From an uncultured Gammaproteobacteria bacterium (GTDB taxonomy: Bacteria > Pseudomonadota > Gammaproteobacteria > Magnimaribacterales > TMED112), in contig CAZNPG010000004.1 of assembly GCA_964575305.1 (NCBI GenBank), positions 5,647 to 69,646 of the forward strand: a stretch of 64,000 bases of DNA, given 5' to 3'. Every line of letters begins with the position of its first letter. Positions within the stretch are counted from its first letter, which is position 1. Position numbers and translations under genes: made by a program. This document shows, piece after piece, positions 44,102 to 54,507 of this stretch. The notes below the pieces were generated by a model. That model did no database searches. It saw nothing but the letters and a program-made list of their open reading frames with translations, and was not told the origin of the DNA.

Positions 44102-44818
44102 ATGTTAACTTTTGAATCTATGGAAAAAATAGCTATAGCTTCAGGAAAAGGTGGTGTGGGTAAAACCTCAATTACATTGATGCTTGCAAAATATTTGAAT
44201 GATAAAGGATATAAAGTTGGATTGCTGGACGCTGATATTTATGGCCCAAACCTTACAGAATTATTCTCGGAAAATACACAAAATATTAAGATCAAACATG
44301 ACCCAAATGACAATAAATTTGAACCTGTAAAATTATCAGGCTTAGTAATAAATTCAATTAGTTTTGTTATAGATCATGACAAAGCAGCAATTTGGAGAGG
44401 GCCTGTTTTAAGCAAAGCCATTAAGCAATTATATTTAAATACCAATTGGGGCGATTTGGATTATCTTCTGATTGATATGCCTCCTGGTACAGGAGATGCT
44501 TATTTAACTATCTTAAATGACCTCGACATCAATAAAGCTTGCTTAATAGCTGTAGAAGATGATTTATGTATCTCTGATCTAAAGAGGACACAAGCTCTTA
44601 TGAAAAAATTTAATGTAACAATATTAGGATTAATAGAGAATATGTCAGAAAATTTTGATGACAACGGCAATGTTATAGAAAGTGATAGAATTAAAGCTGA
44701 ATTAAGAGAAAATATTTTATTCTCGTTACCAAGAATCAAACGATCAGATTTTTATAAAGAGGTAAAACAGATAAATAAGTTAAAAAAATATTTTCCCGAG
44801 AATCTATTAGAAAGATGA
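44102..44818 (+). CDS. apbC: Mrp/ApbC family P-loop ATPase, degenerate (start may be 44120)
   Basis: SGKGGVGKT, DADIYGP, WRGP, WGDLDYLLIDMPPGTGD, ENMS; divergent from metG. Confidence 0.8.
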   Translation: MLTFESMEKIAIASGKGGVGKTSITLMLAKYLNDKGYKVGLLDADIYGPNLTELFSENTQNIKIKHDPNDNKFEPVKLSGLVINSISFVIDHDKAAIWRGPVLSKAIKQLYLNTNWGDLDYLLIDMPPGTGDAYLTILNDLDINKACLIAVEDDLCISDLKRTQALMKKFNVTILGLIENMSENFDDNGNVIESDRIKAELRENILFSLPRIKRSDFYKEVKQINKLKKYFPENLLER

Positions 44819-45534
44819 AAAAGATTACTTTATTTTTACTACTAGCATCCTTAATTGGTGCTGAAGAAGTTCAAGAAGATATTGAAATAGATCCATTTGA
44901 AAAAATGAATAGGGTTGTTTTTAATATTTCAGATTCAATCGATCAAAATTTTCTTCGTCCAACAGCAGAGATTTATAGTGAATATACACCTTTATTTGTG
45001 AAAGATTCGGTCACTAACTTTTTTCATAATATTACAGAAATAGACACTGTTATTAATCAATTACTTCAAGGTAAACCTAAGTTAGCCGCCCAGGACACAC
45101 TGAGATTTCTAATAAACACTACTATTGGTGTTGGCGGAATTTTTGATGTTGCTTCCAGGATGGGGCTTGAAAGACATGATGAAGATTTTGGACAAACTTT
45201 GGGTTATTGGGGAATATCTTCAGGTCCATATGTATTTATACCATTTGTAGGACCCTCTACAGTAAGAGATGTATTTGGTATTCCGCTGAGTTGGTATGTT
45301 TCAGGATCATTTGCCATAGAAGAAGATAGAACAAAAATTATTTTTTCATTTTTAGATGTAGTAGAAACAAGAGAAAGAATCTTAGCAGCTGAGAATTTAA
45401 TTGTAGGCGATAAGTATGAATTCACTAAAGATGTATTTCTGCAGTCTAGAGAGCATTCTGTGAAAGATGGAGAAGTAGAAGATGAATTTCTTAGTGAATT
45501 TGAAGATGAGCTTTTTGATCTAGATCTGCCTTAA
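44815..45534 (+). CDS. mlaA: MlaA/VacJ family protein without lipobox Cys
   Basis: DPFEKMNR, RFLINTTIG, EDFGQTLGYWG, GPSTVRD. Confidence 0.88.
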   Translation: MKKITLFLLLASLIGAEEVQEDIEIDPFEKMNRVVFNISDSIDQNFLRPTAEIYSEYTPLFVKDSVTNFFHNITEIDTVINQLLQGKPKLAAQDTLRFLINTTIGVGGIFDVASRMGLERHDEDFGQTLGYWGISSGPYVFIPFVGPSTVRDVFGIPLSWYVSGSFAIEEDRTKIIFSFLDVVETRERILAAENLIVGDKYEFTKDVFLQSREHSVKDGEVEDEFLSEFEDELFDLDLP

Positions 45535-46477
45535 ACCCACTAAATATTTCTTCTAATTCTATTGATCCATCTCTAACATTTTCTAATAACTGTCTTCTCA
45601 TGTCTTTGGTGTGCGATATTCTTCTTACTATCTGAACTAAATGTGTGATAGCTCTATTAACATCTTTTTTATTTTCTAGATCTAAAATATAGGACATATA
45701 GTTTTGCATGCCTGACGTGAAATCTAATTTAGTATCGTCTTGATAAATCTCTTGATCGATTTGCAATAAAAATGCTGGGTCAGAATAAATTTTTCGACCA
45801 AGCATTACTCCATCAACGTTATTTAAAAGTTTTTTAACTTCGGATACTTCTTCAATACCACCATTAATGATGATATTAAGATCAGGGAACAATTCCTTCA
45901 TTTTAAATACAAGATCATAATTCAAGGGTGGGATGGATCTATTTCTCTTAGTATCTAGTCCACTTATGGCTTTTCGTGCATGTATTACAAATGTACTAAT
46001 TTCATAATCAGATATAGTGGAAATAAAATTTTTAAGATATTCCTCACCTTCAAAATCATCAACACCTATCCGACATTTAATTGAAAACGGCACATCTATA
46101 CTTTTTTTTACTTCATTTACACATTTGCTAAGTAATTCAACATTCTTCATGAGAAAAACACCAAAGTTACCTGATTTAACTTTTTTAGAAGGGCAGCCTA
46201 CATTTAGATTAATCTCGTCGTATCCATATTCTTGGCCTATGATAGCTGCTTCTGCTAGAGATTTTGGATCAGAACCACCTAATTGAAGACCTACAGGATG
46301 TTCACATTCATCAAAACTTAATAACCTATCAACATTCCCTTTTAATATCGCATTAGCATGAATCATCTCTGTGTACAGCATCGATCGTTTTGTAAATTGC
46401 CTTGTTAAAAACCTAAAATGCTTATCAGTTTTTTTCATCATCGGGGCGATGCAAAATTTATGAGAATTTGAAATCAT
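45491..46477 (-). CDS. dusA: tRNA-dihydrouridine synthase A
   Basis: IAPMM, QLGGSDP, NLNVGCPS, KCRIG, HARKA; start moved to ATG 46477 (ATGA overlap with nhaB). Confidence 0.9.
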   Translation of the reverse strand: MISNSHKFCIAPMMKKTDKHFRFLTRQFTKRSMLYTEMIHANAILKGNVDRLLSFDECEHPVGLQLGGSDPKSLAEAAIIGQEYGYDEINLNVGCPSKKVKSGNFGVFLMKNVELLSKCVNEVKKSIDVPFSIKCRIGVDDFEGEEYLKNFISTISDYEISTFVIHARKAISGLDTKRNRSIPPLNYDLVFKMKELFPDLNIIINGGIEEVSEVKKLLNNVDGVMLGRKIYSDPAFLLQIDQEIYQDDTKLDFTSGMQNYMSYILDLENKKDVNRAITHLVQIVRRISHTKDMRRQLLENVRDGSIELEEIFSGFKADLDQKAHLQIH

Positions 46478-52347: not shown

Positions 52348-52354
52348 ACAACCT

Positions 52355-53392
52355 ATGCCTAAAGACATCTATAAATCTGAATATGATTATGAAGTACCAG
52401 AAGAATTAATTGCTAAATTCCCACCTAAAAATAGAGTTGATTCAAAATTACTTTCTTATTCTGGGCAAAACTTCAATATTGATTCCTTTCAAATGATATC
52501 TAAGTTTTTTCACAAAGATGATTTAATTGTTTTTAATGAAACTAAAGTGTTTAAAGCTAGACTTCTTTTAACAAAAGATAGTGGTGGTAAGGCTGAAATC
52601 TTCATAAATAAAATTTGCAATAAATTTGAAGCATTATGTTTAACTAAGAGTTTAAATTTGAAAAAGAAGAAACAACTACTTAAGGCAGAAAACTTCCCTT
52701 TAAAAATAAGTATTCTTAATAATGAAAATGGCTTAACTCATATAAAGTTTGATCAAAATATAACTAAATTATGTGAAAGCATTGGTCATGTTCCTATCCC
52801 ACCATATTTAAATCGAGCTGATCGTGAAACAGATCGAGAAAGATATCAAACAGTTTTTGCAAATCATAGATTTACAGATTCTGCAGCTGCACCGACAGCA
52901 TCATTGCATTTTGATGACGAGCTATTTGATTCAGTTAACAAAAATTTCACTACATGCAAGATAAGTCTAGCCGTTGGTTTAGGCACATTTAAACCCCTTT
53001 CTGAAGAACCTATAACAGAATCATCAACCCTGCATGATGAAGACTTTTTTATTTCTGATGAATCTGCGAAATTAATAAACAATCAAATAAAAAATGATAA
53101 AAGAGTGATAGCAATAGGCACAACAACATTACGTGCACTGGAAGCAGCATGGTGCAATAAGCTTAATGTGATAAAGCCAGGTAAAAACACAACTAATATT
53201 TTTATTAAAGAAGGATATAAGTTTAAGGTCGTTAACAGCTTAGTAACCAACTTTCATTTACCTCAATCAAGTCTACTGATGCTTGTTTCAGCATTTAGTG
53301 GGAAGAAATTTATACTTTCAGCATACAAATATGCCATTGAAAAGAAATTACGCTTTTTTAGTTATGGTGATGCAATGATAATAGATAGATGA
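52355..53392 (+). CDS. queA: SAM:tRNA ribosyltransferase-isomerase
   Basis: [55 protein letters not shown]. Confidence 0.94.
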
Positions 53393-54507
53393 CATTTAAA
53401 ATAAAATCTTCATCAGGTTTTGCTAGAAGAGGGGAGTTAACTACTAAAACCTCTACGATACAGACACCAGTTTTTATGCCTGTTGGAACTTATGGAACTG
53501 TAAAAGGGCTCACACCTGCTCAATTACATGATATAGGATTTGAAATAATTCTAGGTAATGCATTTCACCTCAATGAGAGACCAGGCCTAGATGTCATTAA
53601 AGAATTTGGAGGTTTGCATAAATTTATGGGCTGGAATAAATCAATCCTTACAGATTCTGGAGGCTTTCAAATATGGAGTCTTAATGAGTTAAGAAAAATA
53701 TCTGAAGAAGGAGTTGAATTTAAGTCGCCCTTGAATGGTTCAAAAATATTTATGTCACCTGAAGATTCAATTCAAACTCAATTGGCATTAAATTCAGACA
53801 TTATTATGGCTTTTGACGAATGCACAGATTATCCAAGCACTTATGAAGATGCTGAAGATTCAATGAATCTGACACATAGGTGGGCACAAAGATCAGTTGA
53901 CTACTTTCATAAAAATAAAAATGGACATCTTTTATTTGGGATTGTCCAAGGTGGCATGCATGAGGCATTAAGAAAGGAATCATTAGAATTTATGAAAAAT
54001 CTAGATTTAGATGGAATAGCATTAGGTGGGTTAAGTGTTGGAGAGCCAAAAGAGGAGAAAACAAAAATTTTAAAACTTTTAGCACCATTACTGCCTGATG
54101 ATAAAGCCCATTATGTAATGGGAATAGGAACACCTGAGGAGTTAGTAGAAGGAGTAAGACATGGTATTGATATGTTTGATTGTGTGATGCCAACAAGAAA
54201 TGCTAGAAATGGTTACCTATATACATCAACAGGTATTCTAAAAATTAGAAATTCAGAGCATAAAAACTCTACGGTACCAATAGATGAAAATTGCGATAAT
54301 TATACAAATAGAAATTTTTCTAGAGCATATTTACATCATTTAGATAAATGCAATGAAATATTAGCAAGCACCTTGATGAGCATTCATAATTTATCCTATT
54401 TTTATACCTTAATGTCTGATATTAGAAAGTCTCTGGAAGAAAATAAATTTGAAGAATTTGTTGATTCCTTTTACGATATGAGAAGTTTAAACAAGCCGAA
54501 ACTATAG
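53389..54507 (+). CDS. tgt: tRNA-guanine transglycosylase
   Basis: [40 protein letters not shown]. Confidence 0.96.

Follow-up and report, generated by a model that had tools for sequence, protein, structure and literature searches.

Why would a bacterium give up the metal-binding cysteines of its housekeeping proteins and yet keep the proteins? The question is raised by a 64,000-nt stretch of DNA (32% G+C; hereafter the window) from the SAR86 lineage, an abundant surface-ocean bacterium, in which NCBIfam models, used here to name genes, identify the neighbors MetRS, an ApbC/Mrp-like ATPase, MlaA, DusA, NhaB, NudC, RNase E, RluC, QueA and Tgt. A first-pass annotation of this DNA had proposed that four of these proteins have lost cysteine metal ligands: the RNase E Zn-link is deleted, two Tgt zinc cysteines are changed to Asn, the CxxC of ApbC is lost and one NudC zinc cysteine is changed to Thr, with catalytic motifs intact in all four and with the zinc knuckle of MetRS and the CGFS of GrxD retained as counter-examples. 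When we aligned the proteins to E. coli and Protein Data Bank (PDB) references, each of these readings held. The proposal that the affected sites are regarded as structurally required is likewise supported: the RNase E Zn-link and the Tgt Cys3-His site are considered necessary for assembly and activity. We find that the loss of non-catalytic Cys-metal sites in SAR86 is real, comprises multiple events of very different ages and is partly recurrent, and that the altered proteins keep their catalytic residues and remain under purifying selection.

The zinc sites of RNase E and Tgt

In an alignment of the window’s RNase E to E. coli RNase E, the E. coli HHVCPRC falls in a seven-residue gap (ALNDLM-------GKTVWVR) and both cysteines are gone. 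The CPxCxGxG Zn-link that marks family members between the large and small domains is therefore missing, while the other hallmarks are in place: the protein scores 429 bits with TIGR00757, above the cutoff, it has the S1 domain and the catalytic DNase I-like domain with its Mg-binding Asp residues (E. coli D303, D346), and GGISRRI and the catalytic segments IDINS and VIDFIDM are conserved in alignment to 2BX2. The non-catalytic tail is only ~190 residues long and very rich in Lys, Asn, Pro and Arg, in contrast to the tail of more than 500 residues in E. coli. The same window also encodes a RraA-family protein, which could be an RNase E regulator or an aldolase.

To place this deletion among relatives, we used two views. 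A scan of species genomes with the RNase E gave 13 close relatives (SAR86 cluster bacterium or Gammaproteobacteria TMED112), and the gap at the junction is invariant in all 13. A homologue search returned only sequences at least 89% identical, and the wider view comes from an exhaustive representative search, in which the score falls from 925 bits for the window’s own clade to 480 bits. Among the 150 nearest 50%-identity clusters from that search, 148 carry CxxCxGxG; the two exceptions are the window’s clade and P0260, both SAR86. Scanning metagenomes with RNase E P0260 gave 80 loci, 78 of which we treat as one lineage, lineage B (61–99% identical to P0260, low G+C, marine); the Zn-link is absent from all 77 readable copies of its RNase E. 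The remaining two loci, at 46% identity, keep CPRC. Lineage B has the gene order of the window (RluC-RNase E-NudC-NhaB-DusA-MlaA-ApbC-MetRS-FNR...GrxD-PdxJ), and in a tree of 151 RNase E catalytic domains it is the sister of the window’s clade with support 0.954, a grouping that is open to long-branch attraction. The simplest reading is that the Zn-link was lost once, before two deep SAR86 lineages split.

The loss in Tgt would be younger and has a different form. The window’s Tgt aligns end to end with that of E. coli (E 1e-135, 53% identity) and has the full-length TIM-barrel fold of the family, and the catalytic residues D89, D143 and D264 do not vary in any complete sequence among the best 120 Tgt clusters. 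The structural zinc site of the family is Cys3-His, made of C302, C304, C307 and H333; the three cysteines are E. coli ligands by mutagenesis, according to the citation of Chong et al. 1995 in bioRxiv 10.1101/2020.09.01.277731. At the E. coli segment DPECDCYTCRNY, the window’s protein keeps C302, and C304 and C307 are both Asn, such that the segment reads C-D-N-Y-T-N; the fourth ligand, His333, is retained (SIHNL), and the site as a whole reads C-N-N-H.

The four ligand positions sort the best 120 clusters by lineage. CCCH is found in 81 outgroup clusters, and all clusters outside SAR86-type branches read this way; 12 clusters of SAR86 sisters read CCCC; about 16, forming the window’s subclade, read CNNH, CSNH, CNSH or TSNH, the last of these with no Cys ligand left; and eight, in a second and separate clade, read CSSH. 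Several clusters of the window’s subclade hold 200–480 member sequences. Five entries (P0019, P0027, P0029, P0032 and P0064) are two-lineage assembly chimeras on short contigs and were excluded as lineages; in three of them, P0019, P0027 and P0029, the foreign part at the C-terminus likewise carries no Cys ligands (CILH, GSDH and GTDH), a hint of additional Tgt lineages that are zinc-less. In the 13 close relatives, C-x-[NS]-x-x-N with His333 occurs only in the window and three relatives, and six other relatives have CxCxxC with Cys at 333. The first-pass annotation had called the losses lineage-wide; they are fixed lineage features and not errors, but in the case of Tgt the change is restricted to a subclade.

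The CSSH clade has CCCH sequences as its nearest relatives, its proteins are 36–60% identical to the window’s, and its contigs, marine ones from Tara and elsewhere, have 32% G+C and a local gene order as in the window. It could not be linked to lineage B, as the compared loci share no sequence. These patterns indicate that Tgt ligand loss is confined to the window’s subclade and has recurred independently in another low-G+C marine lineage. Because Ser occupies position 304 or 307 in close relatives, a replacement path from Cys to Ser to Asn is suggested. Taken with RNase E, where 148 of 150 clusters carry the motif, the uniform CCCH of Tgt outside these branches makes a pattern that exceeds chance expectation. 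In the sister SAR86 lineages (L001, L008-L012; P0012-P0030), the fourth ligand has changed from His to Cys (SICNL), giving a four-Cys site; such a site might hold zinc more firmly, a route opposite to that of the window’s loss.

Within Tgt the loss is specific to ligands: across the zinc-less clade, C304 and C307 are kept at 0%, while every member retains the non-ligand C145, C265 and C321. This bears on the idea that cysteine-zinc clusters are prone to damage in sunlit, peroxide-exposed surface water and that the dispensable ones were removed to avoid oxidation. SAR86 is a surface-ocean photoheterotroph with proteorhodopsin and two peroxiredoxin-family genes in the flanks of the window, and the losses hit thiolate ligands only, with Tgt His333 kept. 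However, the sister clades added a thiolate in replacing this His by Cys, the invariant non-ligand cysteines lie near the Tgt active site, and many four-Cys sites elsewhere are kept. We consider oxidation avoidance improbable.

Other queuosine genes accompany tgt, with queA directly upstream and queF elsewhere in the window. On a right-flank contig of the same species, a 143-residue QueD-like protein is encoded in a FolE-Maf-QueD-CysRS cluster; it scores below the QueD model cutoff and has HGY where QueD reads HGH. Its best solved match is 7V0F, which we take to be the ‘low-zinc’ QueD2 of A. baumannii.

NudC, ApbC and GluRS, and the sites that are kept

The zinc ribbon of NudC has lost one of its four cysteines. 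The window’s protein reads YCSRTG...FCDSC where E. coli reads YCGYCG...LCSHC; C101 is replaced by Thr, the other three Cys are kept and the Pfam zinc-ribbon model is undetected. The Nudix box and the SQxWPFP motif that define the family are retained. Twelve relatives have Thr, His or Asp as the second ligand, none has Cys, and lineage B keeps four Cys (CxxC...CxC). This distribution places the change of the second ribbon Cys at the root of the window’s family, and NudC would be left with a weakened site or a three-Cys site. One lineage-B locus (among L049-L126) departs from this with a NudC in which just one of the four ribbon Cys remains (YSGFSG...YCPTTS).

The ApbC/Mrp-like ATPase has changed more extensively. 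It aligns to residues 110–285 of E. coli Mrp with 41% identity, the N-terminal ~100 residues are missing, and at the E. coli segment ENMSVHICSNCG it reads ENMSENFDDNG, without the C-terminal CxxC by which the family bridges a cluster. It keeps the deviant Walker A and DMPPGTGD, and matches PF10609 with E 6e-60, as expected of a P-loop ATPase encoded beside metG. None of the 120 clusters of this protein has CxxC (lengths 180–238 aa, 118 of them at least 231 aa), nor is CxxC ever present in the loci of the 13 relatives or in lineage B. From these comparisons, the CxxC and the N-terminal domain appear to have been lost before the two deep SAR86 lineages split, and the protein probably no longer bridges an iron-sulfur (Fe-S) cluster in the canonical way, with a changed mode of action. 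Its Cys156 is invariant in 118 of 118 relatives of the window’s lineage and is Ala in E. coli Mrp and in lineage B; it may be a new ligand or redox residue.

Could the altered genes instead be decaying or specialized copies, with canonical ones elsewhere doing the housekeeping? The ApbC-like protein does score below the ApbC model cutoff. However, mrp and metG are divergent neighbors in E. coli K-12 and the ApbC-like and MetRS genes are arranged likewise in the window; the short protein is therefore the positional ApbC orthologue and not a stray paralogue. All four altered genes occupy conserved, E. coli-like positions (metG-mrp, rluC-rne, queA-tgt-yajC-secDF), and hundreds of near-identical metagenomic copies exist. 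Ratios of nonsynonymous to synonymous substitution rates (omega) are low, although rough, as the synonymous rate (dS) is saturated and the nonsynonymous rate (dN) low: 0.02–0.05 for the N-terminal domain of RNase E, about 0.06–0.08 for zinc-less Tgt compared with each other, and 0.1–0.2 for the ApbC-like protein and NudC in closer relatives, rising to 0.36–0.43 against the most distant relative (L010). The tgt gene is transcribed at sea: contigs from four marine metatranscriptomes match it at 95–100%, and one spans the ligand codons. On synteny, omega and transcription we reject a pseudogene or paralogue reading, which is highly improbable.

The proteins also dispose of the suggestion, made in the first-pass annotation, that cysteines were removed because reduced sulfur is limiting. 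The window’s proteins contain 0.88% Cys, a figure that might be taken in its favor. Across ten orthologues, however, the Cys count differs little between the window (28) and E. coli (32), with QueA having gained four; the ApbC-like protein gained its invariant Cys156; and in Tgt only ligand Cys were lost, with sister clades gaining one. Sulfur sparing was rejected on these grounds, and we give it almost no credence. In the same ten orthologues, after correction of the MetRS ligand numbering by one, 8 of 15 ligand cysteines and 6 of 17 non-ligand cysteines of E. coli are kept, so ligands are not lost faster than other cysteines, a comparison that is ill-posed, as ligand Cys do not normally vary.

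To see how far such losses extend, we walked outward from the window along same-species contigs that encode window-identical proteins, covering ~170 kb in total including the window. About 7 kb beyond the left end lies the gene for a 428-residue GluRS, whose pZBD (putative zinc-binding domain) has been cleanly deleted, with 38 residues missing (E. coli residues 97–134). The canonical zinc motif is typical of Gammaproteobacteria, and the deletion is rare: a survey of 212 bacterial GluRS found it in seven, each time in a genome with GlnRS or another GluRS as well (PMC4381286). Variants of RNase E and Tgt like those of the window were found in no lineages outside the SAR86-type ones, while the GluRS deletion is known from host-associated reduced genomes.

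In total, five non-catalytic Cys-metal sites are eroded in the ~170 kb. The window’s remaining genes serve carbohydrate use and transport, and the only further Cys sites of this kind there are those of GrxD and TrhO, a protein with nine Cys whose match to Pfam Rhodanese_C is below the cutoff. No relative in either lineage has lost the MetRS knuckle. In the flanks, sites are kept in ClpX (CSFC...CNEC), DnaX (C...CNVCANC), RecR (CSVC...CEIC), an HNH protein with two CxxC pairs and a glutaredoxin (CSYC), and the catalytic zinc sites of TadA, ThrRS, CysRS and FolE are all in place. The erosion is selective and not general or proteome-wide; of the Cys-metal sites sampled, roughly one in three is affected, and no catalytic one. 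A general sparing program, as the first-pass annotation had it, is not what these sites show. Coordinates of the features are collected in Table 1.

Table 1. Positions of the altered and retained sites and of associated genes. Plain numbers refer to the window; L-numbers precede positions on other contigs.
Feature	Position	Strand	Model or remark
RNase E, 668 aa, without Zn-link	48740..50746	-	NCBIfam RNase E/G
RNase E, shortened junction ALNDLMGKTVWVR	49511-49549		
RNase E, non-catalytic tail	48740-49300		
Tgt, degraded zinc site	53389..54507	+	TIGR00430, 504 bits (cutoff 307)
Tgt, ligand codons	54292-54309		C302 TGC, N304 AAT, N307 AAT
Tgt, His333 codon	54385-54387		
NudC	47959..48756	+	NF001299, 215 bits (cutoff 158)
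NudC, C-x2-T ... C-x2-C ribbon	48286-48351		
ApbC/Mrp orthologue, short, 238 aa	44102..44818	+	ApbC model, 176 bits (cutoff 348)
ApbC-like, segment lacking CxxC ENMSENFDDNGN	44636-44671		
ApbC-like, Cys156 codon	44567-44569		
GluRS, 428 aa	L136:20301-21587		Same species, left flank
MetRS core	42480..44084	-	Counter-example
MetRS, intact zinc knuckle CPVC...CEKC	43614-43664		
MetRS, split genes	42147-44084		
MetRS of lineage B, fused	L074:16829-18784		
GrxD, Grx4-type monothiol glutaredoxin	40258..40563	+	TIGR00365; counter-example
GrxD, CGFS	40345-40356		
TrhO	36702..37622	-	NF001133
TrhO, C-terminal CHGC / CDNC	36810-36890		Putative metal site, retained
QueA	52343..53392	+	NF001140, 352 bits; queuosine pathway context
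QueF	31187..31897	+	TIGR03138, E 2e-41, below cutoff; queuosine pathway context
QueD-like protein, 143 aa	L146:15902-16333		Same species, right flank
RraA-family protein	12461-12931		
HolB (delta-prime) of lineage B	L074:4072-5052		Not counted

Two further observations concern individual proteins. MetRS is split in the window’s lineage into a 534-residue core and a separate gene for a 110-residue tRNA-binding domain, and lineage B has the usual fused enzyme of 651 residues. The E. coli delta-prime subunit (HolB) has a four-Cys zinc module; lineage-B HolB has no Cys at this position, but its homology is weak (E 6e-9) and the alignment uncertain, and we did not count it.

Weighing the possible drivers

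Two explanations carry most of the weight. In the first, non-catalytic Cys-metal sites of several single-copy housekeeping proteins would have been dismantled in separate events as an adaptation to scarce zinc. Open-ocean water has free zinc at picomolar levels (PMC3323870), and under such conditions a structural site liable to stay unfilled would be a liability; zinc-independent versions would be favored wherever the fold tolerates them, and, the genome being streamlined, selection toward shorter proteins would assist the loss. In A. baumannii, zinc limitation disrupts queuosine-tRNA synthesis and a ‘low-zinc’ QueD2 is deployed (PMC9894224). We favor zinc-independence because the Tgt loss is ligand-specific and repeated, because sisters tightened the same site to four Cys and because the queuosine pathway is zinc-sensitive. 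On this account RNase E, Tgt and GluRS would fold and assemble without zinc through replacing protein contacts. We regard zinc-independence under scarce zinc as the most likely driver, with confidence that falls a little short of even.

The second explanation, a strong rival, needs no metal-specific selection. Under genome streamlining or relaxed constraint, marginal structural elements are trimmed or decay, with zinc knuckles, linkers and domains as frequent casualties, and each loss is neutral or size-driven and unconnected to zinc supply. Consistent with this, three of the five events remove sequence (seven residues from RNase E, 38 from GluRS and the N-terminal domain of ApbC), the proteins are short relative to E. 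coli (RNase E, 668 against 1061 aa; ApbC, 238 against 369 aa) and many zinc sites are intact (ClpX, DnaX, RecR and MetRS). However, Tgt and NudC changed by substitution, which saves no length; the Tgt loss is specific to ligands and recurs independently at the same two positions while non-ligand Cys are invariant; and free-living SAR86 populations are presumably very large, making drift weak. We think that streamlining alone has an appreciable chance of being the answer, though on balance it probably is not.

Several points weigh against zinc-independence as the driver. Tgt, NudC and ApbC are low-abundance proteins, and the zinc saved would be small. Six non-catalytic Cys-metal sites in the ~170 kb are intact (MetRS, GrxD, ClpX, DnaX, RecR and the HNH protein), as are four of four catalytic zinc sites and the putative TrhO site. 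The sister Tgt clades added a Cys ligand, and the omega values are rough, as described above. Prochlorococcus MED4, a co-habiting streamlined oligotroph from the same water, keeps the Zn-link motif in an RNase E that elutes as a tetramer (PMC3113571), a fact that also fits the streamlining rival. The same holds for the GluRS deletion, which occurs in Mollicutes and Neorickettsia, organisms with reduced genomes that are not oligotrophs (PMC4381286). A metal-economy driver is plausible. Our literature search turned up no paper that deals with zinc and SAR86 proteins.

A bolder version of the zinc-independence reading is that SAR86 is converting its housekeeping proteome stepwise to work without structural zinc. 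RNase E would have a metal-free interface, and Tgt a zinc-free fold that arose at least twice, while sisters tightened their site to four Cys; GluRS and NudC would follow the same trend, each change would be an adaptive response to zinc at picomolar levels, with allele frequencies that would track dissolved zinc. Taken in full, this version is doubtful. Natural versions without such sites that are still selected can reveal the contacts that replace the metal and are ready-made for testing. In ocean biogeochemistry, a permanently lower demand for structural zinc in a dominant heterotroph would alter estimates of bacterial zinc quotas, and zinc-less and zinc-bearing Tgt alleles would be sequence markers that can be mapped against dissolved zinc.

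Comparison with known systems

RNase E of the window has the domain order of the E. coli enzyme (PDB 2BX2, 2C0B), with the S1 segment and small domain present and 47% identity over the N-terminal domain. Members of the family form homotetramers, built as dimers of dimers. In E. coli, the CPxCxGxG Zn-link joins two protomers, and it has been described as conserved and as organizing the RNase E dimer (PMC7849360, PMC4435900); in the window it is deleted and the enzyme ends in a short basic tail. Growth of E. coli is supported by fragments that lack both the Zn-link and the small domain, but only with much reduced activity (PMC7849360). Unlike those fragments, the zinc-less enzyme here sits in the conserved rluC-rne position as apparently the only copy.

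Tgt resembles the bacterial enzymes of E. coli and Z. mobilis (1ENU) in its catalytic Asp residues, His333 and queA-tgt-yajC-secDF synteny, and it departs from their Cys3-His site in having Asn or Ser for C304 and C307 and, in some SAR86 relatives, Thr for C302. The ApbC-like protein shares with the ApbC/Mrp/NBP35 Fe-S carrier ATPases the P-loop domain, deviant Walker A, DMPPGTGD and place beside metG, but it has neither CxxC nor N-terminal domain and its C-terminus is divergent. In GluRS the whole pZBD is missing, as in the seven pZBD-deleted bacterial enzymes (Chongdar et al. 2015, PMC4381286). Those known cases come from Mollicutes, Neorickettsia and similar reduced genomes, the named carriers being Acholeplasma, phytoplasmas and Neorickettsia (PMC4381286), while the SAR86 case lies in the Gammaproteobacteria.

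A parallel in outcome is with the Zur-controlled C-minus forms of L31, L33, L36 and S14 and with QueD2, in which the work of a Cys-Zn protein is done zinc-free or with zinc held differently (PMC3323870, PMC9894224). In those systems paralogues are switched, the ribosomal ones under control of Zur. SAR86, by contrast, appears to have neither paralogue pair nor regulation, and one gene copy would be permanently changed. What is new is the constitutive form of this known zinc-independent replacement of zinc proteins.

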